From IMG/VR virus record IMGVR_UViG_3300022654_000689: a DNA stretch of 64,000 nucleotides; one strand, written 5' to 3'. A program made the translations under genes and the position numbers. The stretch's first letter is position 1. Each line of letters opens with the position of its first letter. Under the pieces are notes generated by a model. It was not told the DNA's origin. It ran no database searches and saw only the letters and a list, made by a program, of their open reading frames with translations. The DNA is from a virus (Duplodnaviria; Caudoviricetes). Below, piece after piece: positions 10,071 through 27,899 of this stretch.

Positions 10071-11342
10071 TTAAAATGAGCATCTTAACGCTGCTGTATA
10101 TAATGCGAAACCATAATAATAACTAGGACTACTATTATCAGCAAATACTCTTATAACATCTCCTTTTTTAACTGTTAACTCTTTTTGTATCAGATATGCC
10201 TGCATGTCATCATTGTCATAAGTAAGTGCATCCCATATTCCAGTATTTGGTATTGTCATAGTCGGTGTATTAGATGTAGTACAGTCATCAGTTGAATATA
10301 AACTATCGTTTATATAACAATATAATTTAGTACCACTACGACCAGTACATAACAATACTGTTTCAAATCTTACTGTACCTGAAACTGGCATTTCAAAACC
10401 TTCAATAAGATTAGCTCCTTCTGCAGCCCATTCACTACCACCATAATAAGCTGCATTAGCATCATAATATATACATACATTAGTATTTTCTGGTATAGGT
10501 GTATTTAATTCACAGCTATTAGCATTCTTTCTATCAAACTCTTCATCTGTTTTAACTATTAAATCAGCCATAGTATCCTCTTCTAAAACCTCTACACCTT
10601 CATCTTCAAGTACAGAAGCAAGAGAGTCTCTAAGAGTAGTATCTTCTTCTCCTACTCCATATGCAACCCAATTACATTTTGTATTAGTACCATAATAACT
10701 AGGTATATCAGCAGATAACGCAAATTCACCTTCTCTAACATAAGTATTAGTTCCATCTAATACGACCGATACTGCCAATTCACTTTTAGATGTTGTAGCA
10801 TAATAATATTCTGACGTAGTTGTAGATTTTAAAGAATTGTACATAAAACGTATAGCACCGCTATTCCATACAAAGATCAAATCAGGTGTAAACGAAAAAC
10901 CTGAAACACTACATATTAAAGGTTTTGATGTATCTGCAGATATTGCGTTTACTGTACCACTAGCCATCTGTATGCCTTTACCTTCATTATCTGCCAATGT
11001 AGCTAACTTATCTATTAAAGCTTTAAACTTATCTCCACTTTCTATAGCAACACCATTAATCATCATATTAGTTTTAAATGTATTTAGAAGACTATTTATA
11101 TCTCCACTCATATCATTAAAAGTATCCTCTGCACTTAGAGGCTCTCCAATAGCGTCAGCTATAAGTTCTTTACCATCATTAACACCTTGATTTAGTTCGT
11201 TAACCGCATTAACTACATTATCTTTATTAGTAGTTTGCAAATTATTAAGTTCACCTATATTACTGCTAGCCACATTATACTTACCATCAACATAATTTTT
11301 AACACGTTCTAATGAATTTCTTAATATTTCCGATATATTCAT
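10071..11342 (-). CDS. Putative fibre tip / receptor-binding protein (paralog 2)
   Basis: The N-terminal ~128 aa and an internal ~50 aa block are near-identical to 11643-13319; other segments are unrelated. Confidence 0.65.
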   Translation of the reverse strand: MNISEILRNSLERVKNYVDGKYNVASSNIGELNNLQTTNKDNVVNAVNELNQGVNDGKELIADAIGEPLSAEDTFNDMSGDINSLLNTFKTNMMINGVAIESGDKFKALIDKLATLADNEGKGIQMASGTVNAISADTSKPLICSVSGFSFTPDLIFVWNSGAIRFMYNSLKSTTTSEYYYATTSKSELAVSVVLDGTNTYVREGEFALSADIPSYYGTNTKCNWVAYGVGEEDTTLRDSLASVLEDEGVEVLEEDTMADLIVKTDEEFDRKNANSCELNTPIPENTNVCIYYDANAAYYGGSEWAAEGANLIEGFEMPVSGTVRFETVLLCTGRSGTKLYCYINDSLYSTDDCTTSNTPTMTIPNTGIWDALTYDNDDMQAYLIQKELTVKKGDVIRVFADNSSPSYYYGFALYTAALRCSF

Positions 11343-11374
11343 TTATATTTCCTCCTTTTATAATATTATCTTAA

Positions 11375-11386
11375 TATTAATTTGTT
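11375..11386 (-). promoter_or_regulatory. Late promoter AACA-N6-TA
   Basis: AACAaattaaTA upstream of 11342. Confidence 0.7.
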
Positions 11387-11420
11387 AATATGCTATTATA
11401 TCTTTAATATAGTTATTTTT

Positions 11421-11579: not shown

Positions 11580-11594
11580 TTCTAATATTGTTAA

Positions 11595-11630
11595 AAGAAA
11601 AATAGAATATAGTCAAAGACTATATTCTAT
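11595..11630 (-). terminator. Intrinsic terminator
   Basis: ATAGAATATAGTC-aaa-GACTATATTCTAT with a U-tract on the minus strand, after the 558-aa gene. Confidence 0.7.
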
Positions 11631-11642
11631 AATTAAAAATAA

Positions 11643-13319
11643 TTAGTATAGTTCTATATCAGAGATATATACAGTTCCTGAATGTTGATCCTCTGAATGA
11701 ATAGCAAATCCTAAATAATATGAACCACTCCAATTTGATATATCTATTTCAAATTCTAACGGTTCCATTACACTACGAGCTTCTGTTATTAAAACCTCAC
11801 ATTTATCTACAGCACCTAAACCAGTTAATACTGAATTTATATTAACTGAGTTATGAGTAGAACTACGTGTTCCACTAAATGCTACTATTTTAGTTGGAAG
11901 CTCTCCATAATCATCTGAAGTGAAGAAACTATGTCGAGCTTTAATTCTTATTTTATTAAAATCTGAGAAATTGATCAATGTTTTAAGAGTTGAACCACTT
12001 CTGTTATGACCATCATAATCTCCAACACTACCAGAAAGACCAGAGCCTTTTAATTGTAAACCATCCGTAGTACTGTATAAAACAAATGGGCTTGATGTGT
12101 TAAATATAAAGTTTCCTCCAGTTACATATGCTTTATCTTCCATTATAGATACTGATTTTTGAGTTAATTGTTCCCATTGTGAGTTTCTATAAATATACGA
12201 TGACAATCTTGTAGTATGCCCTTGTAATACTTTATATATATAGTAATTATGTTTAATGTTATTCGTATTAACAGTTACTAAATTACCAAGATGCCCATCA
12301 TGAGTAGTAGAATCTCCTACATATAATGTAATACCATCATCATTGTTATATACATCATCATAATTTGAAGTTATGTAAAATAAATTAACTGGATTATCTG
12401 TTATTACACATATTTGATTTTCTTTACCAGTAGCAGGTAATTCAGTGGCACTTATTATATCTAATCCTTTATTAGCATTTTTTCTATCAAACTCTTCGTC
12501 AGTTTTAACTATTAAATCAGCCATAGTATCTTCTTCTAAAACCTCTACATCTTCATCTTCAAGTACAGAAGCAAGAGAGTCTCTAAGAGTATTATCTTCT
12601 TCTCCTACTCCTATTGCATACCAAGTAAATTCTGTAGCTTCAATTGGTACATCATGTACAGCTAACCTAAATCCATTATCAGATAGTGCATTAGTAAAAT
12701 TAAATCTGTTCCCTTCTTCATAAGAAGTGTTAGTTATTCCTTTAATAAAATAAGTACAAATAACATTATTATCGTAAAAATCTGTTGTTATTCCTATTGC
12801 ATTATAATCATTACCGTCAGTTAATTTAGCGTTTGCAATTACTAAATTTGGTTTAAATGATAAATCTGTTACTACTAAACCGTATGCGTATATACTTCGA
12901 TGCTCAATATCAACTAACTCACCGGTAAATGTACCTGAAGCTAACTGCATTCCTCTGCCTTCATTATCTGCTAATGTAGCTATCTTATCTATAAGTTGTT
13001 TAAACTTATCTCCACTTTCTACTGTTACTCCATTATTCATCATATTAGTCTTAAATGTAGTTAATAATCCATTTATATCTCCACTCATATCATTAAAAGT
13101 ATCCTCTGCGCTTAGAGGTTCTCCAATAGCGTCAGCTATAAGTTCTTTACCATCATTAACACCTTGATTTAGTTCGTTAACCGCATTAACTACATTATCT
13201 TTATTAATAGTTTGCAAATTATTAAGTTCACCTATATTATTACTAGCAGTATTATATTTACCATCAACATAATTTTTAACACATTCTAATGAATTTCTTA
13301 ATATTTCCGATATATTCAT
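11643..13319 (-). CDS. Putative fibre tip / receptor-binding protein (paralog 1)
   Basis: IGELNNLQT.NKDNVVNAVNEL fibre motif; C-terminal IDISNWSGSYYLGF...VYISDIELY domain. Confidence 0.65.
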   Translation of the reverse strand: MNISEILRNSLECVKNYVDGKYNTASNNIGELNNLQTINKDNVVNAVNELNQGVNDGKELIADAIGEPLSAEDTFNDMSGDINGLLTTFKTNMMNNGVTVESGDKFKQLIDKIATLADNEGRGMQLASGTFTGELVDIEHRSIYAYGLVVTDLSFKPNLVIANAKLTDGNDYNAIGITTDFYDNNVICTYFIKGITNTSYEEGNRFNFTNALSDNGFRLAVHDVPIEATEFTWYAIGVGEEDNTLRDSLASVLEDEDVEVLEEDTMADLIVKTDEEFDRKNANKGLDIISATELPATGKENQICVITDNPVNLFYITSNYDDVYNNDDGITLYVGDSTTHDGHLGNLVTVNTNNIKHNYYIYKVLQGHTTRLSSYIYRNSQWEQLTQKSVSIMEDKAYVTGGNFIFNTSSPFVLYSTTDGLQLKGSGLSGSVGDYDGHNRSGSTLKTLINFSDFNKIRIKARHSFFTSDDYGELPTKIVAFSGTRSSTHNSVNINSVLTGLGAVDKCEVLITEARSVMEPLEFEIDISNWSGSYYLGFAIHSEDQHSGTVYISDIELY

Positions 13320-13360
13320 TTATATCTCCTCCTTATTCATTTTTTTTTAAATTCACCAAC

Positions 13361-13510
13361 CTATCCTTCGAATATTGAATTCATTAGTTCATCTAATTCC
13401 TCTTCAGTTATTAATTCAGCTTCAGCCATATTACATTTATTATCAACATATTCTTTAAGAACGCCTAATACGTTTTTTAATTCTTGCATTGATATTGTTT
13501 TTTCTTGCAT
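13361..13510 (-). CDS. 49-aa adaptor-like micro-protein, copy 2 (not in ORF track)
   Basis: RBS AAGGAG; MQEKTISMQELKNVLGVLKEYVDNKCNMAEAELITEEELDELMNSIFEG*; duplicated at 13779-13928. Confidence 0.8.
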   Translation of the reverse strand: MQEKTISMQELKNVLGVLKEYVDNKCNMAEAELITEEELDELMNSIFEG

Positions 13511-13533
13511 TTTAATCGTCTCCTTAATTTATT

Positions 13534-13716
13534 TTATAATTTTGAATGTATTTCATTGATAGCATTTACTAAATTACTTTTGTCATTTGTATTTAATAAT
13601 TCTAAATTACCTATACGATTAGATATACTATCAGCATTACCTTCTAAATTAAATTTATTATCAGTATATAATTTAATTCTTTCTAATGTTTTTTCTAGTA
13701 TTTGTGTTATTGTCAT
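13534..13716 (-). CDS. 60-aa protein similar to the N-terminus of the fibre tip paralogs
   Basis: MTITQILEKTLERIKLYTD...IGNLELLNTNDKSNLVNAINE versus MNISEILRNSLERVKNYVD...IGELNNLQTTNKDNVVNAVNE. Confidence 0.75.
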   Translation of the reverse strand: MTITQILEKTLERIKLYTDNKFNLEGNADSISNRIGNLELLNTNDKSNLVNAINEIHSKL

Positions 13717-13778: not shown

Positions 13779-13928
13779 TTATCCTTCAAATATTGAATTC
13801 ATTAGTTCATTTAATTCGTCTTCAGTTATTAGTTCAGCTTCAGCCATATTACATTTATTATCAACATATTCTTTAAGAACACCTAATACGTTTTTTAATT
13901 CTTGCATTGATATTGTTTTTTCTTGCAT
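13779..13928 (-). CDS. 49-aa adaptor-like micro-protein, copy 1 (not in ORF track)
   Basis: RBS GAGGAG; MQEKTISMQELKNVLGVLKEYVDNKCNMAEAELITEDELNELMNSIFEG*; 47/49 aa identical to copy 2. Confidence 0.8.
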   Translation of the reverse strand: MQEKTISMQELKNVLGVLKEYVDNKCNMAEAELITEDELNELMNSIFEG

Positions 13929-13957
13929 TTTAATCGTCTCCTCTTAATTTATTTTAT

Positions 13958-14176
13958 TTAAGATCCAAATACTGATAAAAAGATATTATTTAATTCCTCT
14001 TCAGTCATTGGCTCTATAGGCATTTTAGACTCAATTTTTGTATTAACTTCATTTATTTCTTGTTCCAATACTGTATCTAATGTACTGTTATTATAACCAT
14101 CTACATATACGCAATCTGCTCTAGTTATAGGCCATATTTGATTTCCATTTTCTTTAAGAATTTTTTTGTTGGCCAT
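13958..14176 (-). CDS. 72-aa adaptor-like protein
   Basis: N-terminal KKILKENGNQIWPITRADCVY and C-terminal MTEEELNNIF modules shared with neighbours. Confidence 0.75.
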   Translation of the reverse strand: MANKKILKENGNQIWPITRADCVYVDGYNNSTLDTVLEQEINEVNTKIESKMPIEPMTEEELNNIFLSVFGS

Positions 14177-14197: not shown

Positions 14198-15067
14198 CTA
14201 TATTCCAACTGCTGTAAATATTGCATTTAACTCATCTTCAGTTATATCATCTATTTTAGTATCAAGTTCATTATTTAAATTATTTATTTCTGTTTGTAAT
14301 TCATTAATACATGCAACCATATTATCTTTTGCATCAGTTAATAATTCATCACCATTTCCAATTGAAGTTAATAAAGTGTTTATAGATGTATCAAAATAAC
14401 TTAAATAAGCTGTTAGTTGGGTACCATCATCATCAATTACAGTATTGAAACGTACCATCGGGCTTATTATTCTTTCGCCTTTAATTAATGTATGAGAATC
14501 ATAAACTTCGCCTTCTTGAAATAAGGTACTCTGAATAAAATTAGCTGCTGCAACACTTGTATCTAATTTATTACCATTTAAAACTTCTAACGCTCCCGTT
14601 ATTTCAGCAACTTCCCCATTTATAACTTCATTGATATCTTCTATTTTACCATCGATTTCAGTTTCAGTATAATATCTGTTATCGTGATTATGAGTAGTTA
14701 CATCACCAGTTAACTTAGCTTCTATTTCAGCTTTAGTTATATCACTATTTTTTTGAGCATCAACAGGAGCATGCGCGGCTTGTGAGTGATCATAAGCTAT
14801 TTTCCCTCTATCGCCTCTATAAGCTGTAGTAGAAGTTTCTCCTAATATAGGTGCGAAAGTTGAAGGCTTATTAGTCACATCATTCCAGTTAGGAACCCAA
14901 GTATTAGACCTAGCCCCTACTTCATCAGCAGTATGGGTATGTGATATATCTGATTTTCCAGCCAATGCACTAACTAAAGTATTAGAAGTACCAGGCATAT
15001 ATACAGCATCAGCTCTGGTAATAGGAATTATATTTTCAGTGCCTAATTTAAGTATTTTTTTAGCCAT
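14198..15067 (-). CDS. Short fibre protein
   Basis: HTHTADEVGA, WNDVTNKPSTF, LGETSTTAYRGDRGKIAYDH and HNHDNRYYTETEID phage fibre motifs. Confidence 0.75.
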   Translation of the reverse strand: MAKKILKLGTENIIPITRADAVYMPGTSNTLVSALAGKSDISHTHTADEVGARSNTWVPNWNDVTNKPSTFAPILGETSTTAYRGDRGKIAYDHSQAAHAPVDAQKNSDITKAEIEAKLTGDVTTHNHDNRYYTETEIDGKIEDINEVINGEVAEITGALEVLNGNKLDTSVAAANFIQSTLFQEGEVYDSHTLIKGERIISPMVRFNTVIDDDGTQLTAYLSYFDTSINTLLTSIGNGDELLTDAKDNMVACINELQTEINNLNNELDTKIDDITEDELNAIFTAVGI

Positions 15068-15218: not shown

Positions 15219-15244
15219 GAAGAATAGGTGTACACCTATTCTTC
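15219..15244 (-). terminator. Intrinsic terminator
   Basis: GAAGAATAGGTG-ta-CACCTATTCTTC just after the stop of the Ala-rich gene. Confidence 0.65.
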
Positions 15245-15256
15245 ATTAAATAAATC

Positions 15257-17680
15257 TTATAAATCAGCAAGATTTCCTGTAAAGTCTTCAGCAGTTATAT
15301 GAGTAGCAGCTGCAGTTTCTAAAGCAGATATTCTATTAGCAGCGTCTACGTTTTCTAAAACTTTAACACGTCCCATTAATCCTTTACTATCGTCTCCAAC
15401 TACTACTTCTAAAGCGTCTATTTCTCCTTGAGCAGCATCTGCAGCATCTTGAGCAGCTTTTATAGCAGCATCTTTTCCGTCAGCTTGTTCTTTAGCATAA
15501 GCTTTAGCTTGAGCTAATATACCAGTTGTTTCGTTATTTATAGCAGCTATAGCTTCAGCATTTGCATCAGCATCGTCTTGAGCAGCGTCTGCAGCATCTT
15601 TAGCAGCTTGTATAGCAGCATCTTTTTCGTCAGCATAATCTTTAGCTTGTTTTAATATACCTGTTTCAGCATTGTTTATAGCATCTATAGCAGCTTGTAA
15701 TTGATCATGAGTATGAGCTGCAACGAAACTTTCAACAGCTGAAACTCTTCCAGCTAATGCGTCATCAGCATCTTTTCTAAGTTTAGCTTCATCAGCAACA
15801 GCTTTAGCAACAGATCCTGCTACTTCAGCTCCACCATTTAATACGCCTATAGCAGTTTCATTAGCTCCAACTCTAGCAACTAAAGCTTGAGCAGCAGCTC
15901 CATCATCAGTTATATATTTTTGGATTTCTTTTAATGTATCAACAGCAGCTTCTCCAGTGTCAGCAGCAGCCATGAAAGCATCTATATCCTCTTGAGCAGC
16001 TTTAGCAGCAGCTAATGCACCTGCAGCGTCAGCTTTAGCAGCAGCTTCAGCTTCGTCTATAGCAGCTTGTACAGTAGCTTTCTTTAATCCAACGAATTTA
16101 GCTTCGTTAGCTTCAACTCTGTCTTCTAAGTTTCCAGCAGCAGTATTAACATCAGCAACTAATTCATCAGCATATGCTTTAGCATCAGCTAATGCTTTTT
16201 TAACTGATCCGTCTCCATTTCCTTCTATAACAGCTAATCTGTCATTTTGAGCTTTGTCTTTAGCAGGTTGAGCAGCAACAAATGCTTCGTTAGCAGCTAT
16301 TCTAGTTTCGAATCCGCTTTCTACACCTTTAGCTCTAGTTTCTTCAGCTTTAACAGCTTTAGCAACAGATCCTTCTACGTCAGCTCCACCATTTAATACG
16401 TTTATAGCAGCTAGGTTGTCAGCTATTCCTTGTTCCATAACACTATGGTCATGATTTTGTTTGAAGTCTTCAACAGCTTCTAATCTGTCTACTAATCCAC
16501 CTTCGTCATCTAATCTTTTTTCTACAGCGTCTACTTCACCTTGAGCTTTATCTGCAGCTTGTTGAGCAGCATTAGCTAATCCTGCTATTCTTTCGTCTTC
16601 AGCTTCTAAATCTTCAACAGCTTTGTTAACAGCAGCTTCTATAGCAGCGTCAACACCTTGTTCCCCAACTTTTCCTTCTAACGCAGTGATTCTTCCATCT
16701 AAACCATTTTCTGCACCTGTAGCTCTAGTAACTTCAGCAGCTATTTTATTAGCTAAAGAACCTTCTTTATCAGCATTTTTTTCGTCAGCTAAAGCTTGTT
16801 CTACAGCGTCTACTTCACCTTGAACACCATCTATTCTTCCACCTAAAGCAGTATCAGCAGCAGCAAATTCTCCTCTTATAGCAGCTTCTACACCTTCTGC
16901 TCTTTCTTTTTCAACTTTAACATCAGCATCTATTTCAGCTTGTAATTCAGTTTTTAAAGCAGTATCTGCAGCAGCAAATGCAGCTTCTGCATCGTCTATT
17001 TCTTTTTGTAAAGCAGCTTTTAAAGCATCATCTTTGGCTTTAGCATCTGCAGCAGCTTGAACTAATAAACCATTTTCAGCATTATTTATAGCATCTATAG
17101 CATTTTGTAATTTTAAATCTTCAGCAGCAAATTCGCTTCTTAATTCACCATGATCAGCTTCTAATTCATTAACTCTTTTAATTAATCCACCTTCAGCATT
17201 TCCTACTACACCTTCTAAAGTGTCTACTTCACCTTGAGCTTTATCTGCAGCTTGTTGAGCAGCATCTGCAGCATCTGCAGCAGCTTTTATAGCGTTAGCA
17301 ACAGCTCCGCCTTCTTTATTAGCATTTTCTAATGCTAATATTTTAGCATCTTGAGCAGAGTCTATAGCAGGTTGAGCTTTAACAAATGCTTCGTTAGCAG
17401 CAACTCTTCCTTCTAAGTTTTCATCTTTAGCTTTTAAATCAGCAACATCTTTAACTAATCCCTTAGAAGCATCTCCAACTGTACCTTCTAAAGCATCTAA
17501 TCTACCATCAGTAGCAGTCATATAATTTTTTAAAGCTGAACCTTCTCCACCGCCTATGTCAGCTTTCATAGCTTCAAGGACTTCATTTAATAATTTTCCT
17601 TCTTCACAAACAACACAGTCCATTTTCGTAATAGGTAATATTTGTTCTTCACCTATTTTAAGTATTTTTTTGCTCGCCAT
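15257..17680 (-). CDS. Ala-rich coiled-coil fibre shaft protein (~807 aa)
   Basis: Heptad-rich AADAAQ/EVDALE repeats, DTLKEIQKYI and GSVAKAV motifs. Start MASKK at 17680 after AAGGAG. Strongly biased GCT/GAA codons suggest high expression. Confidence 0.75.
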   Translation of the reverse strand: MASKKILKIGEEQILPITKMDCVVCEEGKLLNEVLEAMKADIGGGEGSALKNYMTATDGRLDALEGTVGDASKGLVKDVADLKAKDENLEGRVAANEAFVKAQPAIDSAQDAKILALENANKEGGAVANAIKAAADAADAAQQAADKAQGEVDTLEGVVGNAEGGLIKRVNELEADHGELRSEFAAEDLKLQNAIDAINNAENGLLVQAAADAKAKDDALKAALQKEIDDAEAAFAAADTALKTELQAEIDADVKVEKERAEGVEAAIRGEFAAADTALGGRIDGVQGEVDAVEQALADEKNADKEGSLANKIAAEVTRATGAENGLDGRITALEGKVGEQGVDAAIEAAVNKAVEDLEAEDERIAGLANAAQQAADKAQGEVDAVEKRLDDEGGLVDRLEAVEDFKQNHDHSVMEQGIADNLAAINVLNGGADVEGSVAKAVKAEETRAKGVESGFETRIAANEAFVAAQPAKDKAQNDRLAVIEGNGDGSVKKALADAKAYADELVADVNTAAGNLEDRVEANEAKFVGLKKATVQAAIDEAEAAAKADAAGALAAAKAAQEDIDAFMAAADTGEAAVDTLKEIQKYITDDGAAAQALVARVGANETAIGVLNGGAEVAGSVAKAVADEAKLRKDADDALAGRVSAVESFVAAHTHDQLQAAIDAINNAETGILKQAKDYADEKDAAIQAAKDAADAAQDDADANAEAIAAINNETTGILAQAKAYAKEQADGKDAAIKAAQDAADAAQGEIDALEVVVGDDSKGLMGRVKVLENVDAANRISALETAAATHITAEDFTGNLADL

Positions 17681-17718
17681 TACAATATCTCTCCTTTTCA
17701 TATAAGTTTTATTTTCAA

Positions 17719-17730
17719 TATTAATTTGTT
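17719..17730 (-). promoter_or_regulatory. Late promoter AACA-N6-TA
   Basis: AACAaattaaTA upstream of 17680. Confidence 0.7.
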
Positions 17731-17735
17731 ATCGA

Positions 17736-17758
17736 AAGCGGGAATAATATTCCCGCTT
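17736..17758. terminator. Hairpin, likely terminator
   Basis: AAGCGGGAATA-a-TATTCCCGCTT after the 1328-aa gene. Confidence 0.6.
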
Positions 17759-17770
17759 CATTAATCTGTT

Positions 17771-20700
17771 TTATATATCTAAATCAGGGTATACTGTTGT
17801 ATCTTTAGTTGGTACAGCAGTTATATAATAAAGAGTTAATGTAGGATATGCAGGATCTTTAGCAGGTACATCTGCTTTAGTAGCTAATAAGTTTTCTAAT
17901 TCTTGAAGTTCATCCTTAGTAGCTAATCCTGTCATGTCTAATGATCCACCAGGTAATTGAGCTTCTGTTATTTTGTTATTAACGTAGTTCTCAGTAGCTA
18001 ATCCTTCTAAATCAGTTTTATCAGCTTTAGTAGCTAATGTATTAGTCATAGTTGTAGCAAAGTTAGGATCATTACCTAAAGCTTGAGCTAACTCATTTAA
18101 AGCATTTAATGTATCAGGAGCTTGCCCTACTAAATCTCCTATTTTAGTATCTACATATTCAGTAGTAGCTTTATTATCCCAAAGTGTAACTCTATCAGCA
18201 TTGATGTTATCTAATACTTCTTTATTAGCATGAGTATGAAGATCAGTTTTATCAGCTTTTAATTCTAATGCAGCGTCAACATCAGATTGATTAGCTTTTT
18301 TACTAACTTCTTCTTTAGTTTCATATACTGTTAAGTCAGGCTTTTCAGTTAATTCATTATAAGAACCGCTAAATTCTGATTTACTATCCCAAGCAGCTAC
18401 TTTAGCAGCATCTATTCCATCTAACACTTGTTTATTAGCATGCTCATGAGTATCAGCTTCAAGTGTTTCAAGTCTTTCTTTTACATCAGTATCATCGTAA
18501 TTATCAACATTAGCTAATCTTGCTATTTCAGTATCAGCAACTAATGATTTTCCTTCTACTTTATCTACTTTAAGATCTAAATCAGCTTTATCAGCTTTAA
18601 CATCTAACGCAGTATTCATTTCGTCAACCATAACTATTTCTTCAGGCACGTCTGATAAATCGTTAAATGAACCACTGAATAGTACTGGTAAATCCTCTAA
18701 GTCATTATATGAACCACTGAATTCTGATTTTTCATCCCAAGCAGCAACTTTAGCAGCGTCGATATTATCAAGAACTTGTTTATTAGCATGTTCATGAGTA
18801 TCCGCTTCAAGAGCAACAAGTCTATTTTTCACATCAGTATCATCATAGTTTTGTAACTCAGCTAATCTTGCTATTTCAGTGTCAGCTACTAATGATTTTC
18901 CTTCTAATTTATCTACTTTCTTATCTAAATCAGCTTTAGCAGCATAATCTTCATCATGATTATGATCTCCAGCTGCTTTATTATCCCAAGCAGTTATTTT
19001 TTCAGCAGTTAAAGCATCTAATAAATCTTTATTAGCATGTTCATGAAGATCAGTTTTGTCAGCTTTTAATTGTAAAGCATTATCAACATCAGTTGTATTA
19101 GCTTTGTCTTTTATAGCTGTTGATAATTCTTCGTCAGTAACAAATATTTCTAAGTTAGCTCCATCACTTTCTAATTGAGCTTTTTGTATTGCTTCATCTA
19201 TATATCCTTTAGTACCATAATTATCTAATTCAGTAGATAACATTCCAGTAGTAACATGATCAGTTGGTTTACCTTCTAGGTCTTCATATTTTCCACTGAA
19301 GTTAGATTTCGCATTCCAAGAATCTATTAAATCTTGATTTATTTGGTCTAACGCATCTTTATTTTCATGTTCATGAAGATCAGTTTTATCAGCTTTAAGA
19401 GATAATGCTTGGTCTACGTCTTCTTTTTTAGCTAATGGCTCTAAATCAGTAGATTTAGCTAATCCTTCTATAGATGGTATTTCAGGAGTATCAGTTAAAT
19501 CAGTATATGAACCACTGAATTCTGATTTACTATCCCATGCAGCAACTTTAGCAGCGTCGATATTATCTAGTACAGCTTTATTAGCATGACTATGTAAATC
19601 TCCAGAATTAGCTTTTCCGTCGATTAATTCTCTTAATTCAGAATCGTCATAGTTTTGTAATTCAGCTAATCTTGCAATTTCAGTATCAGCTATTAATGAT
19701 TTACCTTCAACTTTATCTACTTTTCCATCTAAATCAGCTTTAGCGGCATAATCTTCGTCATGATTATGATCAGCTTCAGCTTTATTATCCCAAGCAGCTA
19801 TTTTTTCAGCATTTATTCCATCTAAAGCTTCTTTATTTTCATGGTTATGTAATTCAGATTTATCAGCTTTTAATGCTAATGTCGCATCAACATCTGCCTG
19901 ATTAGCTAGAGGTCTTATAGCATCAGCTAATTCAGAATCAGTAACAAATCCTGAAAGGTCTACTTCTTCTCCTTCTAATTTAGCTTTTGCTATTTCTTCT
20001 GTAACATATTCTTTAGAAGCATAGCTTTCTAATTCAGTAGATAACATTCCAGTAGTAACATGATCAGTTGGTTTACCTTCTAAATCTTCATATTTTCCAC
20101 TGAAATTAGATTTAGCATTCCATGCATCTATTTGATCTTGATTAATTTGAGCTAACGCGTCTGCATTTTCATGGTTATGTAATTCAGATTTATCAGCTTT
20201 TAATGCTAATGCTTGATTTACATCTTCTGATTTAGCTAATGGTTCTAAGTCAGTAGATTTAGCTAATCCTTCTATACTAGGTATTTCAGGTTTATCAGTT
20301 AAATCATTATAAGAACCACTGAATTCTGATTTTTCATCCCAAGCAGCAATTTTAGCATCATCGATTTTGTCAAGAACTGCTTTATTATTATGAGTATGTA
20401 AATCAGTTTTATCAGCTTTTAATCCTAAAGCATTATCAACATCAGTTTGATTAGCTTTTGCATTTACTTCTTCTTTAGTAGCAAATCCAACTAAATCATT
20501 TTGTTCTACTTTAGCATTTAAAGCTTCTCGTATTTCAGAATCATCATAGTTATCAACTTTGGATAATCTTTCAATTTCTTCGTCATCTACTAAAGATTTA
20601 CCTTCAATTTTATCTACTTTTCCATCTAAATCAGTTTTATCAGCTTTTAATCCTATTTGATTAGAAACAGTAGTAGCAAAACTTGCATCGTCTTTTAATG

Positions 20701-21757
20701 CAGCTGCTAACTCATTTAACGTATTTAAAGTTTCAGGTGCAGAATCTACTAAATTAGCAACTTCGTCTTTAACGAAAGCTTCAGTAGCTAATCCTTCTAT
20801 ACTAGGTATTTCAGGAGTATCAGTTAAATCTTTATATGACCCAGTGAAATTTGATTTTTCATCCCAAGAAGCAATTTTAGCATCATCGATTTGATCAAGA
20901 ACTGCTTTATTACTATGAGTATGTAAATCAGTTTTATCAGCTTTTGCGTCTAACATAGAAACGTCAGCTTTAGCATCAAGCATTGATATATCGGCTTTAG
21001 CGTCTAATGCAGTTTTATCAGCTTTAAGATCTACTGCATCTTGAGTAGCTAATCCTTCTATAGATGGTATTTCAGGTAAGTTTTCTAAGCTGTTATAGTC
21101 ACCATCGAAATCTGATTTTGCATCCCATAATGCCATTCTAGCAGCATCTATTTTGTCAAGATCATCTTTATTAGCGTGTTGATGTAGTTCAGTTCTATCA
21201 GCTTTATAACTTAATTCATCTTTAGTTGCATATCCAGATAAATCTACTTCTTGATCTCCACCATTTAATTCAGCTTCAGCTATTGCATTTCTAACGAAAG
21301 TTTCAGTAGCTAAACCATCAACTGAAGGTATTTCATCTTTAGTAGCATAGTTAGCTAATTCAGCACCTAACATTCCAGTAGTTACATGATCAACTGGCTT
21401 ACCTTGTAAGTCTTCATAATTTCCACTGAAGTTAGATTTTGCATTCCAAGATTCTATATGATCTTGAGTAATTTGGTCTAATACATCTTTATTATCGTGT
21501 TCGTGTGAATCTCCAGCAGCGGTTTCTCCCCCACCTACACCAAACTCTTTCCATTCAGTTCCATTGTATTGGTATGTCTTATCTTCACTGATTACGTATA
21601 CAATTAACCCTGGATAAGCACGGTTACCTGTAACATGAGCGTCACGTTCTTCTATAGTATTAGCTACTAAACGTGCGTCTAATGGTGCTTTAGCACCTAG
21701 ATCAAATCCAGATGCTAAAGGAATTCCCCTACCAAAGAAAGTGTTATTATCTGCCAT
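17771..21757 (-). CDS. Long repeat-shaft fibre protein
   Basis: Many KADK.DLHxHxNK.VLD.I....I..W..KS.FSG.Y.DL..KP.IPSIEGLA repeats, two APETLNTLNELAAAL motifs, and an N-terminal PLDAR...YPGLIVYV module. Confidence 0.8.
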   Translation of the reverse strand: MADNNTFFGRGIPLASGFDLGAKAPLDARLVANTIEERDAHVTGNRAYPGLIVYVISEDKTYQYNGTEWKEFGVGGGETAAGDSHEHDNKDVLDQITQDHIESWNAKSNFSGNYEDLQGKPVDHVTTGMLGAELANYATKDEIPSVDGLATETFVRNAIAEAELNGGDQEVDLSGYATKDELSYKADRTELHQHANKDDLDKIDAARMALWDAKSDFDGDYNSLENLPEIPSIEGLATQDAVDLKADKTALDAKADISMLDAKADVSMLDAKADKTDLHTHSNKAVLDQIDDAKIASWDEKSNFTGSYKDLTDTPEIPSIEGLATEAFVKDEVANLVDSAPETLNTLNELAAALKDDASFATTVSNQIGLKADKTDLDGKVDKIEGKSLVDDEEIERLSKVDNYDDSEIREALNAKVEQNDLVGFATKEEVNAKANQTDVDNALGLKADKTDLHTHNNKAVLDKIDDAKIAAWDEKSEFSGSYNDLTDKPEIPSIEGLAKSTDLEPLAKSEDVNQALALKADKSELHNHENADALAQINQDQIDAWNAKSNFSGKYEDLEGKPTDHVTTGMLSTELESYASKEYVTEEIAKAKLEGEEVDLSGFVTDSELADAIRPLANQADVDATLALKADKSELHNHENKEALDGINAEKIAAWDNKAEADHNHDEDYAAKADLDGKVDKVEGKSLIADTEIARLAELQNYDDSELRELIDGKANSGDLHSHANKAVLDNIDAAKVAAWDSKSEFSGSYTDLTDTPEIPSIEGLAKSTDLEPLAKKEDVDQALSLKADKTDLHEHENKDALDQINQDLIDSWNAKSNFSGKYEDLEGKPTDHVTTGMLSTELDNYGTKGYIDEAIQKAQLESDGANLEIFVTDEELSTAIKDKANTTDVDNALQLKADKTDLHEHANKDLLDALTAEKITAWDNKAAGDHNHDEDYAAKADLDKKVDKLEGKSLVADTEIARLAELQNYDDTDVKNRLVALEADTHEHANKQVLDNIDAAKVAAWDEKSEFSGSYNDLEDLPVLFSGSFNDLSDVPEEIVMVDEMNTALDVKADKADLDLKVDKVEGKSLVADTEIARLANVDNYDDTDVKERLETLEADTHEHANKQVLDGIDAAKVAAWDSKSEFSGSYNELTEKPDLTVYETKEEVSKKANQSDVDAALELKADKTDLHTHANKEVLDNINADRVTLWDNKATTEYVDTKIGDLVGQAPDTLNALNELAQALGNDPNFATTMTNTLATKADKTDLEGLATENYVNNKITEAQLPGGSLDMTGLATKDELQELENLLATKADVPAKDPAYPTLTLYYITAVPTKDTTVYPDLDI

Positions 21758-21776: not shown

Positions 21777-22895
21777 TTAGTATTTAAATGTCATATTGAA
21801 GTTAGTATTTGTATTAGCTCCATTAGCATATACATAATATGCTTGAGCTGTTCCATCTAAACCTACTACAGAAACTTCAGTTCTAGTGAAAGTTCCTATT
21901 TGTTCGAATCCATTAGGGTCTAATATTGATTTTAGAACACCATAAGATTTAGGATAAGCTATAACCATACGTTGATTGTCTGATGTAAATGAATATGTTT
22001 TATTACCTTTTGCAACAACTTGTTTAGTTAGTCCTTTAACTACGTCAGCTGTTATTTCAACACCATCTGCAACTACTCCATAATAATATGGATAATAGAA
22101 ATTAAGAGCTACAGTATTAGCTGTAACTGATTTTCCACTTGCATCAGTTGCTACAACTTTAAAGTAACTAGTTGACGCAGTTTTAATAACTTGTTGAGCT
22201 GGATCGAATTCGTGTACAAAACTACCACCACCTGCAACGTCTTCAGTTACTTCTTCAACAACCGCATTATTTACATAAAATTTAACACTAGTTATATTTT
22301 CTGATTTTTTAATAACATTTGCAGTTATTCTGCTAACTTCAATAGTTTGACCAAATTCATATACTCCACCAGTTGGAGTGTATCCTAATGATGCAGATAC
22401 AGTTGGCTGAACGTAAGGATATAATAATTTAGTTAAAACTTGTTGTATTGACATACCATTTAAATCAGTTCCGGCTGGTATTCCGCCTAACGCAGATACA
22501 GTTTTCATATCAGCTTTGAATACATCATTTTCAGCAACTTCTTCTAGTTCTTCTTTAGTTGCTAATCCAGATATATCAACACTTCCTCCGCCTACTCCAG
22601 CTTCAGCTATCGCGTCTTCAACAAACTCTTTAGTTACATATGGCAATTCTTGATACGTATCAACTAAAGCATTTTTTATAGTAGATAAACCAGATTTACC
22701 ATCTTTCAATGTTAATACTTCAAATCTTTTGCCAGTATCTTTAACATATACAATCATACCAATATATGGTTTTGGTATTGACATAATATCTGCTTCTGTT
22801 TCTACTCTACATCTAACGTCTAAAGGTGTATCAGTAGTAGATGGTTTAAAACCGCCTTTAGATGCTGATGCATTAAGATTAAAATCTGTAGCCAT
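21777..22895 (-). CDS. Fibre connector protein with probable Ig-like domain
   Basis: N-terminal MATDFNLN..ASKGGFKPS.TDTPLD.RCRVETE module; LGGIPAGT...LLYPYVQPT; C-terminal YYPYYYG...YYVY domain. Confidence 0.7.
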   Translation of the reverse strand: MATDFNLNASASKGGFKPSTTDTPLDVRCRVETEADIMSIPKPYIGMIVYVKDTGKRFEVLTLKDGKSGLSTIKNALVDTYQELPYVTKEFVEDAIAEAGVGGGSVDISGLATKEELEEVAENDVFKADMKTVSALGGIPAGTDLNGMSIQQVLTKLLYPYVQPTVSASLGYTPTGGVYEFGQTIEVSRITANVIKKSENITSVKFYVNNAVVEEVTEDVAGGGSFVHEFDPAQQVIKTASTSYFKVVATDASGKSVTANTVALNFYYPYYYGVVADGVEITADVVKGLTKQVVAKGNKTYSFTSDNQRMVIAYPKSYGVLKSILDPNGFEQIGTFTRTEVSVVGLDGTAQAYYVYANGANTNTNFNMTFKY

Positions 22896-22918: not shown

Positions 22919-24412
22919 TTAATTTTCATCGATGTGGATTGTATAATTTGCTCCACCATTAGTATCATACATTCCTGATAGTCTATATTTGATACCGTCT
23001 ATTTCATTTACTAATTCAACATTGTCTAATGATAACCCAGACACTGTATCAAATTCTGTGAAACTACATTTTTTACCATTACCTTCATCCATTGAAGCTA
23101 CTAAAGTACTATCTACAGGTAATATTACACATATAAATCCATTAGCTGGTACTTCTAACTCAACAGAACCTACAGCTTCAGGTTCAGCTTCTATTAATGA
23201 TCCATTATCTATACCAAATTTCATTATATCATAAGTCATATTTCCATTTATATGATTAGTTTCAGAGAATCCAGCAACTCCAGTTTCATCGTATGGTATA
23301 TATCCATACCACATTTTTGAATTAGCAGGGCCAGCCATAACAGGATAACACTTAGGTAAATTGAATATTACTGTTATATTAGGGAATTCTCCTACCATTT
23401 CAACTGAAGGTTCAAATCCATTTTCAATCATATTTACTTGGAATTGATAATTAGCACCATTAATAACTCCATCTTGAGTTATTTGAATATTAGAACCTGC
23501 TTTAACACCACCTAATTCTTCATTAGTAGCAACTGGAAGTTCATAATTGTCAACGTTAGCTAATCTTTCTATTTCAGCATCATCTACAAGAGATTTTCCT
23601 TCTACTTTATCTACTTTAGCACCTAGTCCTTCATTAACAAAGTTTTCAGTAGCTAGTCCTTCTATAGATGGTATTTCAGGTTTATTAGTTAAATCATTGT
23701 AATCTTTACTAAATAATTCTGATTTATCAGCTTTATTAGCTAATATTCCTCTTATTTCAGCGTCATCATAATTGTCAACGTTAGCTAATCTTGCTATTTC
23801 AGCATCATCAACAAGAGATTTACCTTCCACTTTATCTACTTTGTTAGTTAACCCTTCATTAACAAAGTTTTCGCTAGCTAAACCTTCTATACTAGGTATT
23901 TCAGGTTTATTAACTAAGTCATTATAATCTTTATTGAATAATTCAGATTTATCAGCTTTATTAGCTAATATTCCTCTTATTTCAGCGTCATCATAGTTAT
24001 CAACATCTGCTAATCTTGCTATTTCAGCATCATCAATTAATGATTTACCTTCTGCCTTATCTACTTTGTTAGCTAACCCTTCATTAACAAAGTTTTCAGT
24101 AGCTAATCCTTCTATATTAGGTATTTCAGGCTTATCAGCTAAGTCATTATAAGAAACTATTAATTCTCTATATTCATTAACTGCAGCGTTTTTAACAACA
24201 GATAATCCAGCTTTAATATCTTTTAATGATAATACTTCAAATCTTTTACCAGTATCTTTAACATATATTACCATACCAATATATGGTTTTGGTATTGACA
24301 TAATGTCTGCTTCTGTTTCTACTCTACATCTAATATCCAAAGGTGTATCAGTAGAGGACGGTTTAAAACCGCCCTTAGAAGCAGATGAGTTAAGATTAAA
24401 ATCTGTAGCCAT
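22919..24412 (-). CDS. Fibre protein
   Basis: N-terminus near-identical to 21777-22895; shaft KVDKVEGKSLVDDAEIARL repeats; YELPVAT.EELGGVK motif; C-terminus near-identical to that of 24441-27899. Confidence 0.75.
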   Translation of the reverse strand: MATDFNLNSSASKGGFKPSSTDTPLDIRCRVETEADIMSIPKPYIGMVIYVKDTGKRFEVLSLKDIKAGLSVVKNAAVNEYRELIVSYNDLADKPEIPNIEGLATENFVNEGLANKVDKAEGKSLIDDAEIARLADVDNYDDAEIRGILANKADKSELFNKDYNDLVNKPEIPSIEGLASENFVNEGLTNKVDKVEGKSLVDDAEIARLANVDNYDDAEIRGILANKADKSELFSKDYNDLTNKPEIPSIEGLATENFVNEGLGAKVDKVEGKSLVDDAEIERLANVDNYELPVATNEELGGVKAGSNIQITQDGVINGANYQFQVNMIENGFEPSVEMVGEFPNITVIFNLPKCYPVMAGPANSKMWYGYIPYDETGVAGFSETNHINGNMTYDIMKFGIDNGSLIEAEPEAVGSVELEVPANGFICVILPVDSTLVASMDEGNGKKCSFTEFDTVSGLSLDNVELVNEIDGIKYRLSGMYDTNGGANYTIHIDEN

Positions 24413-24440
24413 TATAACATCCCCTTCTTATTATATTAAA

Positions 24441-27400
24441 TTATTTTTCTTGAACATAAATTGTATATCTTGCTCCACCATTAGTATCATACATTCCTGA
24501 AAGTTTATATGTAACACCATTTATTTTGTTAACTAGTGTACGATCATCTAATGATAATCCAGAAACTGTATCAAAGTCACTAAATGTTCCAGCATTTCCT
24601 ATACCATCATCTATAAGTCCTATTAAATTACTATCTAATGGTAGTATTGTACATAAGAAACCATTTGCTCCTACTAAAAATTCTGTAGCTCCTAAAACTC
24701 CTGGTTCAGCTTCAATTAAAGTTCCATTGTCTATACCGAATTTCATTATATCATAAGTCATATTTTCATTTATATGATCTACTTCAGAGAATCCTGCTAC
24801 TCCACTTTCGTCATATGGTATCCATCCATACCACATTTTTGGAGTCCCTGGTTCTTCCTCTTCTCCTTCTCCACCGCCTTCAACAACGCTTCCAGCAGGT
24901 ATGTTAAATACAACAGTAATATTTGGATAATCTCCTTGCATAGAAACAGATGCAGCTTCTCCAGCAGCTATCATATTAATTTTGAATTGATAGTTTGCAT
25001 TGAATACTCCAGCTAGTCTTTCTATTTCAGCATCATCTACAAGAGATTTATTTTCAACTTTATCTACTTTACCAGATATATCAACTTGAGGATGTTCTAT
25101 TGCAGCTATTTGTTGATTAACGAATTCTTCACTAGCTAATCCTTCAACAGATGGTATTTCAGACTTATCAGCTTTATCAGCTATCATTTCTCTTAATTCA
25201 GAATCATCATAAGCTAAATCTTCGTCAACTGGTCTTTCTACTTTTTCTAACATAGAAATATCACCATTGTTGACAACACAGTCCATTATAGAACCTTTAA
25301 CGTCTTCAGCAATCATTTCAACTCCATTGTCAGTACCAAATTTGAAATTATTAACTGTTCCTCCGTTTAATTCTACAAATCCGTCTTCTATTATACCATT
25401 AACAGTAGCGTCTTCAGTTTCTCCACCGAAGTATAGATTTTGAACAATACCGTCATTTAATACAAATCTAGCTTTGAATACAACACCTCTGTTTGTTGAT
25501 TGAGCTACTTTAACAGAACCTCCGTTTAGAACTATTTCAGCATTTCTTGTCATACCATTAGAACCACCAGCTGTTACCCAACCGATTTCACAATTGTTAA
25601 ATTCTGCATAAACATCATCTGCAACACCATTTCCTTGTGATCCACCGAAGAATGTAGAAGATATTTTACAATTAGTCATTTTAATATTTATATCGTCTAC
25701 TACGTTCATTCTAGTTGCTTTACCGTTAACAGATGCACCACACCAACCAGCACCCATAACAGAAACAAATTCGCAGTTTTCAGCTTCCATGTTAACATGG
25801 CCTACCATACCTTCGAAATAGCATCCACCAACTAAACCTTTGATTTTAACATCTCTAACAATCATATTAGTTTGAGGTATGGAACGTCTAGCTCCAATAT
25901 TTCTATCTCCAAAACCACCAACTAAATAAACTTTAGCAGCTTCTTCTTTTTCAACTACTATAGCTTCAAATCCTTCCGCCCATCTATAAACGAATGCTAC
26001 TGCATCTTCAGGTTTTTCAGCATCATACTTATGTCCTATATTAGGTTCAACTGTCATTGGTTGACCACAAGCAAATAAGAATTTACTAGTTGGATACGCT
26101 GCAACATCAGTTAGATAAGGTTTTTCTTCATCTATTAATACTCTCAATTCAGAATCATCATAGTTATCAACATTTGCTAGTCTAGCTATTTCTTCATCAG
26201 CTACTAGTGATTTCCCTTCAACTTTATCTACTTTAGCATCTAAATCTTCTTTAGTAGCAAAACCTGACAAATCAATTCCTTCACCGTTTTCGCCGCCACC
26301 TAATTGAGCTTCAGCTATTTTTTGATTAACAAAATCTTCACTAGCTAGTCCATCTATAGATGGTATTTCAGGTTTGTTAACTAAGTCATTATAATCTTTA
26401 CTGAATAGTTCGTCTTTTCCAGCTTTACCATCTATCATTTCTCTTAATTCAGTATCATCGTAATTATCTACATTAGCTAGTCTAGCTATTTCAGCGTCGT
26501 CAACTAAAGATTTACCTTCTACTTTATCTACTTTATTATCAATTAATCCTCTTAATTCAGCATCATCGTAATTTTTAAATTGATCTAAATCATCTTTAGT
26601 AGCTAAATTACTTAAATCAGGAACTTTATATAGTTCAGGACGAATTAAATTATCATCACCAAATATATGAATTCCTTGGACTGCATTATTTATTTTATCT
26701 CTTACAGCTTGATGAAGATCTTCTTCAGGAATTCCATCATCAGGTTTGTTATATTTTGCATTCCATATGTCTCTTTCACCTGAAAGAACATGAGCATCGT
26801 TGTCGTCTCTATGAATTCCCCATTCGTTATTTATGAAATCTTCATAATCTTCTTTTGATACATAATCACCTGATATACTTCCTTCTCTTTCAGGTAATAA
26901 TTCATCTCTCACCTTACCAGATAAAGGATCAACTATATCGCTAAATGGGAATATTTTAGCCATTTCATCTTTTATGTCATTTCCTAAATGAGAAAATTTT
27001 AAACCGTCAGCAGGCATATCAAATTTATTATCCCATTCAATTATTTTAGCATCATTTATTGTATCTAATAGTGCTTTATTTTCATGAACATGGAAATCAG
27101 TCTTATCAGCCTTTTCAGATATAAGATCTCTTAATAAAGAATCGTCATAGTTATCAACATTTGCTAGTCTAGCTATTTCAGCGTCGTCAACTAAAGATTT
27201 ACCTTCTACTTTATCTACTTTATTAGCTAATTCGTCTTTAGTAGCTAATCCTGATAGATCTATTTCTTGGTCTCCACCACCTAATTCAGCTTCAGCTATA
27301 GCATTTCTAACAAAATTTTCAGTAGCTAAACCTTCTATAGAAGGTATTTCTGATTTATCTGCTTTAAGAGCAAGTTTAGCATCTATAACCGCTAATTCTT

Positions 27401-27899
27401 CAGGATCGACTCCCCCAATTTTCTTTAACTCTTCTTGTACATATTTTTTACTAGCAAATTCCTCAACATTAACAATAACATCTAAGAAATTACCATTAAG
27501 AGTTATTATCTGTTTCATATCTTTTAATACTACTTCAAATCCGTCAGCTGAGATATTAAATACAAACATTACTTGGTCATTTATTCCAAAACAAACAACT
27601 TCAATTCTGTCATTATTATTTTCGGCAAGTCCTCTACCAATGTTTAATATTCTAGCTAAATTTGGATTAATATCAGTATATCCGAATATTTTTCCATCTT
27701 TTAATTGAAAATCTTCTTTGAAATCAACAGTTATATAATTATAAATTGCATTTTTTACGCCATCATTATCTAATAGTTTAAATGAATCTTCATAAACTAC
27801 ATAGCTGTCTCTAATTATTTCTAAATAGTTTTCCATATTAATTTTACCTAATAACGCATTAATTTCGTCACCAGTATAATGAATGTTATAGTAATTCAA
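24441..27899 (-). CDS. Large fibre protein with Gly-rich beta-helix-like domain
   Basis: N-terminal YTGDEINALL motif, shaft repeats, repeated (L/V/F)xGG motifs at ~aa 660-870, and a C-terminal KMWYGWIPYDE...YDTNGG domain. Confidence 0.75.
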   Translation of the reverse strand: MNYYNIHYTGDEINALLGKINMENYLEIIRDSYVVYEDSFKLLDNDGVKNAIYNYITVDFKEDFQLKDGKIFGYTDINPNLARILNIGRGLAENNNDRIEVVCFGINDQVMFVFNISADGFEVVLKDMKQIITLNGNFLDVIVNVEEFASKKYVQEELKKIGGVDPEELAVIDAKLALKADKSEIPSIEGLATENFVRNAIAEAELGGGDQEIDLSGLATKDELANKVDKVEGKSLVDDAEIARLANVDNYDDSLLRDLISEKADKTDFHVHENKALLDTINDAKIIEWDNKFDMPADGLKFSHLGNDIKDEMAKIFPFSDIVDPLSGKVRDELLPEREGSISGDYVSKEDYEDFINNEWGIHRDDNDAHVLSGERDIWNAKYNKPDDGIPEEDLHQAVRDKINNAVQGIHIFGDDNLIRPELYKVPDLSNLATKDDLDQFKNYDDAELRGLIDNKVDKVEGKSLVDDAEIARLANVDNYDDTELREMIDGKAGKDELFSKDYNDLVNKPEIPSIDGLASEDFVNQKIAEAQLGGGENGEGIDLSGFATKEDLDAKVDKVEGKSLVADEEIARLANVDNYDDSELRVLIDEEKPYLTDVAAYPTSKFLFACGQPMTVEPNIGHKYDAEKPEDAVAFVYRWAEGFEAIVVEKEEAAKVYLVGGFGDRNIGARRSIPQTNMIVRDVKIKGLVGGCYFEGMVGHVNMEAENCEFVSVMGAGWCGASVNGKATRMNVVDDINIKMTNCKISSTFFGGSQGNGVADDVYAEFNNCEIGWVTAGGSNGMTRNAEIVLNGGSVKVAQSTNRGVVFKARFVLNDGIVQNLYFGGETEDATVNGIIEDGFVELNGGTVNNFKFGTDNGVEMIAEDVKGSIMDCVVNNGDISMLEKVERPVDEDLAYDDSELREMIADKADKSEIPSVEGLASEEFVNQQIAAIEHPQVDISGKVDKVENKSLVDDAEIERLAGVFNANYQFKINMIAAGEAASVSMQGDYPNITVVFNIPAGSVVEGGGEGEEEEPGTPKMWYGWIPYDESGVAGFSEVDHINENMTYDIMKFGIDNGTLIEAEPGVLGATEFLVGANGFLCTILPLDSNLIGLIDDGIGNAGTFSDFDTVSGLSLDDRTLVNKINGVTYKLSGMYDTNGGARYTIYVQEK

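Follow-up and report, generated by a model that had tools for sequence, protein, structure and literature searches.

A putative colinear plug-and-socket kit for tail fibres in an uncultured phage genome

The long tail fibre of bacteriophage T4, gp34-gp35-gp36-gp37, consists of rod-like proteins joined end to end, with the N-terminus proximal and with a gene order that equals the assembly order. In the BppU-BppL assembly of phages TP901-1 and Tuc2009, a trimer grips with its C-terminal part the N-terminus of the trimer encoded by the next gene. Outside phages, the docking domains of polyketide and non-ribosomal peptide synthases order assembly through short C- and N-terminal modules that fall into cognate classes and follow colinearity. 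Here, we analysed a stretch of 64,000 nucleotides (nt) from the IMG/VR virus record IMGVR_UViG_3300022654_000689 (Caudoviricetes), termed the window at its full length and corresponding to bases 18822-82821 of the 113.6-kilobase (kb) record, which CheckV rates 44% complete. An operon in this window probably encodes a colinear, modular plug-and-socket tail-fibre kit, in which each protein would offer its C-terminal module as a socket to which the N-terminal module, or plug, of the next-encoded protein docks. Such cognate binding had been proposed in an earlier note on the same DNA; it is now supported in silico by a junction census with a blind test, by a predicted complex of one module pair and by a split orthologue.

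The T4 fibre is one fixed chain with four unlike joints, whereas the present locus would reuse a few junction types within and between phages and would add self-compatible extensions and adaptors of 49-100 amino acids (aa). As to a relation to gp34-gp37, no Pfam family was matched at E <= 0.01, which does not exclude remote homology. The BppU-BppL joint likewise runs from a C-terminus to the next N-terminus, and fused relatives of one of the fibre classes described below (Y) carry BppU_N; TP901-1, however, has a single joint and no reusable set. The likeness to synthase docking domains is an analogy only, between unrelated proteins and between enzymes and structural rods.

According to the available parts of the reports, Klebsiella phages and Ackermannviridae carry branched systems of receptor-binding proteins (RBPs), among them anchor-branch systems, the KP32-type branching domain with its docking peptide, RaK2/phiK64-1 and phiKp24 (PMC6872550, PMC13352976, PMC11414711, PMC10253068, PMC9700779). 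As described there, the conserved N-terminus of one RBP docks on a domain of another, and modules are exchangeable between phages. Whereas those tailspikes are docked laterally to an anchor protein and provide additional depolymerases, the joints proposed here are end-on, from a C-terminus to the next N-terminus, and serially repeated. The chain-like fibres of Pseudomonas podophage A1002 are also chains of different proteins, but the available part of that report describes two proteins and gives no evidence of a shared junction family (PMC13730344).

Recurring end modules in the fibre operon

All genes of the fibre region lie on the minus strand. The operon starts at position 27899, where a GyrB-like topoisomerase gene adjoins it back to back, and extends past the window start. 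Its proteins share end modules far beyond chance, as checked by local blastp and MAFFT. In transcription order, the region comprises:

24441-27899, minus strand: g1152, first gene of the operon, with an N-terminal domain of its own, shaft repeats, a beta-helix-like block in the centre and an X1 module at the C-terminus (about 24444-24986)
22919-24412, minus strand: g497, starting with a Y1 plug (24158-24412) and ending in an X1 socket (22922-23455), with three shaft repeats between; putative self-compatible extension segment
21777-22895, minus strand: g372, with a Y1 plug (22641-22895) and an X2 socket domain (21780-22148)
17771-21757, minus strand: g1328, with a Y2 plug (21533-21757), a long shaft of repeats and, at the C-terminus, a short conserved tail, V (17774-17863)
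15257-17680, minus strand: g807/814, with a K plug (17591-17680) at the start, a coiled coil rich in Ala and an E-like end (15260-15304)
15219-15244, minus strand: terminator-like hairpin after g814, ending transcription unit 1
14198-15067, minus strand: g289, starting with a K plug (14978-15067) and ending in E (14201-14248), with a short shaft and a Z-like/NELQ motif between
13958-14176, minus strand: g72, putative mini-adaptor of K plug plus E end
13779-13928, minus strand: g49a, putative mini-adaptor of Z plug plus E end
13534-13716, minus strand: g60, a Z plug alone, without E and without body; matches tail-fibre PHROG 26419
13361-13510, minus strand: g49b, second copy of the Z plus E mini-adaptor, 96% aa identity to g49a
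11643-13319, minus strand: g558, starting with a Z plug (13230-13319) and ending in a globular body; candidate for the distal tip
11602-11630, minus strand: terminator-like hairpin after g558
10071-11342, minus strand: g423, with a g558-type Z plug and a different C-terminal body; candidate alternative tip
6561-8324, minus strand: g587, with a K plug (8235-8324), YadA-head-like repeats and a C-terminal W module
6270-6554, minus strand: g94, a small protein that begins K-like and shares C-terminal homology with g986; another possible adaptor

The module assignments of the earlier note were borne out. X1 ends both the 1152- and the 497-aa protein (64% identity over about 180 aa), and Y1, a module of about 85 aa, starts the 497- and 372-aa proteins with 61% identity over 133 aa and 84% over the first 80. 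The 372-aa protein ends in a different domain, X2; a homology between X1 and X2, suspected by eye, was not supported by hhalign (probability 0.2%). The 1328-aa protein starts with a different module, Y2, as had been read, though this is a diverged homologue of Y1 (23% identity) that keeps the invariant P24, D26, R28, G46, V51 and K56. The KKILK-type start common to the 807-, 289-, 72- and 587-aa proteins (K; MAxKKILK..G...I.P.T..D.V) was recovered in alignments and by blastp (E 1e-10 to 6e-4 in a small local set). The end (I/M)TE(E/D)EL..(I/L)(F/M), here E, aligns in the 289-aa, the 72-aa and both 49-aa proteins. The 807-aa protein is an 814-aa open reading frame (ORF) read from its second ATG, and g814 adds an E-like end of its own (ITAEDF..L). 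The Z module (I..L...L...K.Y(V/T)D) starts g60, g558 and g423 and forms the first half of both 49-aa proteins; the N-terminal parts of g423 and g558 are 88-92% identical at the nt level.

The N-terminus of g1152 bears neither a Y nor a K plug. The gene uses a TTG start codon and carries an E-like motif, HYTGDEINALL, within its first 20 residues (HYTGDEINALLGKI; 27837-27899, minus strand), so that this motif can also occur at an N-terminus. The start of a 601-aa protein on contig L014 resembles this E-like start. Of the remaining ends, the V tail of g1328 is conserved in the protein P0122, and the W module also ends gene 1 of contig L010 and several Y proteins. PHROG matches to 'tail fiber protein' or 'tail protein' were obtained for g1152, g497, g1328, g289, g558, g423 and g60 and stem mostly from shaft repeats and the NxVxAINEL region; Pfam recognised hardly anything in the operon.

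The order of the genes, small ORFs included, is identical in all 24 contigs carrying g497 that were read. The 497-aa protein is present unchanged on contigs of up to 330 kb, and the source is therefore a jumbo phage. No GenBank phage matched the region in a megablast search, and tblastn of g497 matched only the shaft repeats of an uncultured crAss-like phage. Terminator-like hairpins are frequent in the region (13 found against 5.4 expected), and the strong ones (15219-15244, 11602-11630 and 9972-10011, minus strand) occupy the only long intergenic gaps of the operon. The hairpins after g814, g558 and g423 split the region into transcription units. Introns were considered for the gaps of 189 and 300 nt and rejected, as terminator-like hairpins lie there and Rfam at gathering thresholds returned no RNA family in the whole window. 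A scan for sigma-70 promoters showed no enrichment, with 98 found against 97.6 expected from shuffles; the G+C content of the window is about 29%.

Junction census across phages

Relatives were obtained by protein searches followed by look-ups by identity. With X1 or Y as query, either as a single piece or as an alignment, scans of viral_contigs and metagenome_contigs yielded no relatives, and the scan of genome_contigs yielded one locus. The census covered the window and 12 other contigs (L010, L012-L015, L018-L020 and L022-L025) from at least six gene neighbourhoods, among them contigs of 35-104 kb, the 104-kb one having a myophage-like upstream gene layout as judged by eye. X1 was followed by Y1 16 times, X2 by Y2 six times and X3 by Y3 three times, with zero cross-pairing, in agreement with the claim that X type and Y type change together. 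E preceded Z 13 times and K six times, and R preceded S three times. The adjacency rules, whose check across phages had been suggested, thus hold in the 12 other contigs except for two X1 ends followed by other starts, both in L014. The earlier reading that E is followed by Z stands for three junctions in the window; at two more, E is followed by K.

In single contigs, with a slash at each junction, the order X1/Y1..X1/Y1..X2/Y2 of the window recurs in L012, and L013 reads X1/Y1..X1/Y1..E/Z..X2/Y2. Here the orthologue of g372 exists as two genes: residues 1-148 of g372 match gene 3 and residues 118-372 match gene 4, and precisely at the split the two genes have gained an E end and a Z start. 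The smaller phages L010 and L024 read Y1'..X1/Y1..E/Z..E/Z.., and in L010 a holin gene comes straight after the fibre genes. L015, L022 and L023 have X3/Y3-E/K..X1/(Y1..X1/)Y1..E/Z..E/Z-E/K..R/S.., and L019 has X3/Y3..X2/Y2..R/S. In L018, a siphophage-type locus with Dit and Tal genes, a standalone X1 core of 123 aa directly precedes a 1100-aa Y1 fibre, the only one seen in the locus. In L020, a contig with a P22-type portal, a 357-aa protein that ends in an X1-like domain and has no recognisable fibre-like features precedes a 994-aa Y1 fibre, again the only one seen.

The R to S junctions lie at 11342-14692 in L015, 9017-12442 in L023 and 3592-5030 in L019. R ends are rich in 'LLLEDG..LLLE' repeats and S proteins start 'M..KISEL.E'; the S protein of L015 and L023 bears a metallophosphoesterase domain. 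In L014 (2941-6928), two adjacent proteins end in X1, one of them of 189 aa and thus a near-standalone X1, and both precede genes starting MIK(S/N)(F/L)YK(N/D)KKI, a start that could be a further plug type.

L024 and L025, fetched only once the rules had been fixed, served as a blind test. All seven classifiable junctions conform, and the two contigs include a 670-aa Y2..X2 protein, a self-compatible extension segment of a type predicted by the grammar. A shuffle test was run on the 19 junctions that remained once related contigs had been collapsed to lineages. In 200,000 label shuffles, an association as strong as the observed one never arose, and for the nine X/Y junctions alone it arose in 560 of 200,000; these figures show association, not binding, because the physical linkage of adjacent modules is ignored.

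The Y-plug family is large, with 2,154 representative clusters (50% identity) at E <= 0.001. In nearly all of the 150 best representatives, the Y domain stands at residue 1, and the proteins end in a great variety of C-termini, X1, X2, E and W among them. Y seldom lies internally; such cases were found in fusions of the order BppU_N, collagen, Y and shaft, such as P0138 (BppU_N at E = 2.6e-10, 40.6 bits against a cut-off of 23.1). These fusions put Y where a baseplate protein meets a fibre. BppU_N (PF10651) was not found in the scanned proteins of the window, only in fused relatives elsewhere (P0138). Y was likewise not found in 400 other genomes from the order of the Clostridium metagenome-assembled genome that carries L015 and L018; these are therefore not common prophages in that order.

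The same census can be read differently. Y, K and Z may be parallel anchors that bind sites on the baseplate or hub, with X1 and X2 as receptor-binding heads, and the junctions may reflect mosaic evolution, in which tandem paralogues and linked DNA are moved by recombination in repetitive shafts. In the X1 search, all 12 proteins, of which 10 were homologues on other contigs, have X1 at the very C-terminus, a position usual for receptor-binding heads. Within a genome, moreover, X1 copies are closer to each other than to counterparts elsewhere, and so are Y1 copies, which fits gene conversion or duplication. Anchors would also explain why Y is joined to so many C-termini, why L014 has X1 without Y1 and why Y1' genes come first after a gap in L021 and L024. 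However, a 123-aa X1 core and a short non-fibre X1 protein precede lone Y1 fibres, which would be odd for a receptor head, and X and Y types co-vary over unrelated neighbourhoods without cross-pairing. Y1..E pieces of 208-257 aa, g72, g49 and g1328 have no globular head, and parallel anchors leave the split g372 orthologue unaccounted for. We consider this explanation unlikely.

Predicted docking of X1 and Y1

The plug-and-socket reading was also examined by structure prediction, a kind of check that the earlier note had called for. Three X1 chains (alignment A2, first row g497 320-497) and three Y1 chains (alignment A3, first row g372 1-100) were modelled together, and the complex scored 0.74 (runs 0.74, 0.82 and 0.74), against 0.00 for the best of three controls. 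A score of 0.74 is reached by 58 of 80 solved complexes and by two of 110 mismatched pairs, counts that are a rough guide only, for a 3+3 job with its own alignments. The pLDDT (predicted local distance difference test score) of the partners is at least 89, and at least 94% of contacts agree between runs. Since neither X1 nor Y has a sequence relative in the PDB (none at E <= 1), the score is unlikely to reflect a solved complex already known to the predictor. That the prediction passed its controls speaks against parallel anchors as well.

The predicted interface is threefold symmetric and comprises 241-266 contacts. On the X1 side it involves residues 134-141 and 163-172 of the modelled piece, the latter being YDTNGGANYT, and on the Y1 side residues 5-21 (FNLNASASKGGFKPSTT) together with loops 41-42 and 68-76. 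The YDTNGG and FNLN..GGFKPS motifs by which the modules had first been recognised thus both lie in the interface. When Y is modelled alone, its arm (residues 1-27) has a pLDDT of about 50 and its core of about 80, whereas the arm is confident in the complex, which fits an arm that orders on docking. The arm residues 5-21 are conserved, as expected of an N-terminal docking peptide, and form the predicted interface. In the model, the Y plug would consist of this flexible arm before a small beta core with a P-L-D-x-R motif, and the three arms and the core loops would clamp the distal face of the X1 beta-sandwich trimer, YDTNGG loop included.

An order-on-docking arm could alternatively point to an assembly helper. 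X1 and E may bind the next N-terminus only transiently, as a co-translational trimerisation template or chaperone, with the mature fibres separate. The disorder of the Y arm alone would suit such a role, as would the spacing of the junction genes, which lie 12-45 nt apart and favour coupled translation, and the existence of standalone X1 proteins (123 aa in L018, 189 aa in L014). Known fibre chaperones, however, are usually encoded downstream of their client, and the predicted interface is large and threefold symmetric. The head-less shaft proteins would be left unaccounted for, as would the split orthologue, whose halves need to be held together. An assembly helper is therefore a possible but less economical solution than the plug-and-socket kit, and we regard it as very unlikely.

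The modules themselves resemble little that is described. X1 is modelled as a confident beta-sandwich after a small beta domain (pLDDT 87), and its fold found no convincing match in the PDB (Foldseek E >= 0.1; VIA Z score <= 4.7, with a root-mean-square deviation (rmsd) of 3.2 Å over 74 residues). X1, X2, Y1, g72 and g49 matched no family in Pfam (E <= 0.01-0.1) or PHROGs v4. The Y core, compared as a model of mean pLDDT 67, weakly resembles the collagen XV/XVIII trimerisation domain and tailspike N-terminal domains, a lead only. VIA-align Z scores were 5.2 for collagen XV (rmsd 4.8 Å, 51 residues aligned), 4.3 for ORF18 of Geobacillus virus E2, 3.6-3.9 for Acinetobacter phage tailspikes and 3.3 for Mtd, all below the level that counts as meaningful for this tool. 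The weak likeness to tailspike anchor domains (Z scores 3.3-4.3) would also suit parallel anchors.

Adaptors, assembly model and significance

Between the fibre genes lie ORFs of 72, 49, 60 and 49 aa, each with its own Shine-Dalgarno sequence. The earlier note had taken the 72- and 49-aa ORFs for pure two-module adaptors. This holds for the 49-aa proteins, since Z plus E proteins of 70 aa in L023 and 77 aa in L015, recognised by alignment, match g49 along its length at corresponding places; for g72 the counterpart layout is only analogous, two modules as in the 100-101-aa proteins of Y3 core plus E end that recur in L023 and L015. Alternatively, the small ORFs might be debris of duplication and deletion in a recombination-prone locus. 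The g49 cassette with its ribosome-binding site is indeed a recent 163-nt duplicate (13362-13524 and 13780-13942, 97% nt identity), the diverged Z-only stub g60 that sits between the two copies looks like a truncated fibre N-terminus, and a word-based search for g49 homologues of 26-86 aa found only its own twin. Against debris stand the separate ribosome-binding sites, the identical arrangement in 24 of 24 g497 contigs and the counterparts in L023 and L015. The Z plus E counterparts and the recurring Y3 plus E proteins argue that the 49-aa ORFs belong to a conserved two-module adaptor class, and we find debris most improbable. g60 is possibly a blank plug or stub.

In the plug-and-socket model, each protein would presumably be a trimeric rod. 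As each socket would dock the plug of the next gene, fibres would assemble from the virion outwards in gene order. There would be at least four cognate junction classes in this phage, X1:Y1, X2:Y2, E:Z and E:K, to which relatives add X3:Y3 and R:S. Extension pieces, in which the plug matches the protein's own socket type, would be g497 (Y1..X1) and g49 (Z..E), and these could be inserted or lost without breaking the chain. g372 (Y1..X2) and g72 (K..E) would instead act as converters that change the junction type. The stem encoded by unit 1, from g1152 to g814, would read g1152-X1:Y1-g497-X1:Y1-g372-X2:Y2-g1328, followed by the K-type coiled coil. Unit 2 would supply the converters and extensions g289, g72 and g49 together with the Z-type tip g558, and g423, behind its own terminator, would be a second tip. 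Both tips have globular ends and one plug type and would probably be rivals for one socket, as alternative tips for receptor binding. The modules, their recurrence side by side in other phages and a single split orthologue are direct observations, and X1:Y1 docking is a prediction in silico; E:Z and E:K docking, the trimeric state, the polarity, the location in the virion and a linear or branched geometry are inferred.

A broader reading, which we put forward tentatively and with more doubt than conviction, is an orthogonal docking code with at least five cognate classes of C-end and N-end. Segments would be inserted, removed or swapped as whole genes, and self-compatible Y1..X1, Y2..X2 and Z..E pieces would set or vary fibre length. 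Competition of g558, g423 and the stub g60 for one socket would then give mixed receptor specificities per burst.

Several points weigh against the kit. The stop-to-start spacing at X/Y junctions is 12-45 nt, and linkage alone could hold C and N modules together through recombination. E precedes two unlike plugs, the strand-like K and the helical Z, with no visible E subtypes. Some plugs have no expected upstream socket: g49b follows g60, g423 a terminator, g814 the V tail and g587 an amidoligase gene. In L014, X1 occurs twice without a following Y1. The record contains exactly three Y plugs and three X sockets, whereas K and Z make nine plugs against five E sockets, and in the second transcription unit, too, plugs outnumber sockets; this suggests competition of alternative tips or branching, and in other phages plug and socket numbers balance one to one. 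Self-compatible segments of the g497 type could polymerise endlessly, and the model offers no length control. The complex score is the model's own confidence only, and as the prediction covered one pair, the cognate X1 and Y1, a specificity of docking is presumed rather than predicted. The co-evolution for which the earlier note had suggested a test appears as a tendency, in that covariation is stronger in the closest predicted contact columns than in entropy-matched non-interface columns (mean percentile 0.70, 12 junction pairs), but this support is weak because the sample is small and the junctions are non-independent.

Other genes accompany the fibre region. An amidoligase-family gene (8392-9240, minus strand; PF12224 at E = 1e-37, PHROG 2443) lies inside the operon; it directly follows the gene of a 223-aa acidic protein that is coiled-coil-like, and it precedes g587, the K-type fibre gene. 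After the fibre genes come large DUF285 (BspA-like leucine-rich repeat) proteins with Listeria-Bacteroides repeats, namely g986, g831 and proteins of 622 and 695 aa, at window positions 3-6269 (minus strand) and record positions 15282-19648. g94 and g986 have a common C-terminal module (45% identity over 71 aa), another recurring end module. At 35716-38130 (plus strand), an 804-aa homologue of glycogen/starch phosphorylases shares 43-47% identity with annotated glycogen, starch, alpha-glucan or carbohydrate phosphorylases and with unannotated human-faeces phage contigs; it is probably an auxiliary metabolic gene.

The principle of the proposed kit is already known, since serial fibres (T4), end-on joints (BppU-BppL) and docking peptides on branching domains are established. 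What appears to be new is a small set of reusable, seemingly orthogonal junction classes across very different phages, the self-compatible extension genes with adaptor genes of 49-100 aa, and a module family without a match in the searches of Pfam, PHROGs v4 and the PDB that were run. A literature search found no description of such a junction system, which leaves prior publication possible. If the junction rules hold, fibre architecture would be readable from gene order in a very large group of uncultured phages, and gene order would reveal the proteins that make up one fibre, its tip and its spacers. The modules would also be natural orthogonal connectors for building laboratory phage fibres of chosen length and with chosen tips.

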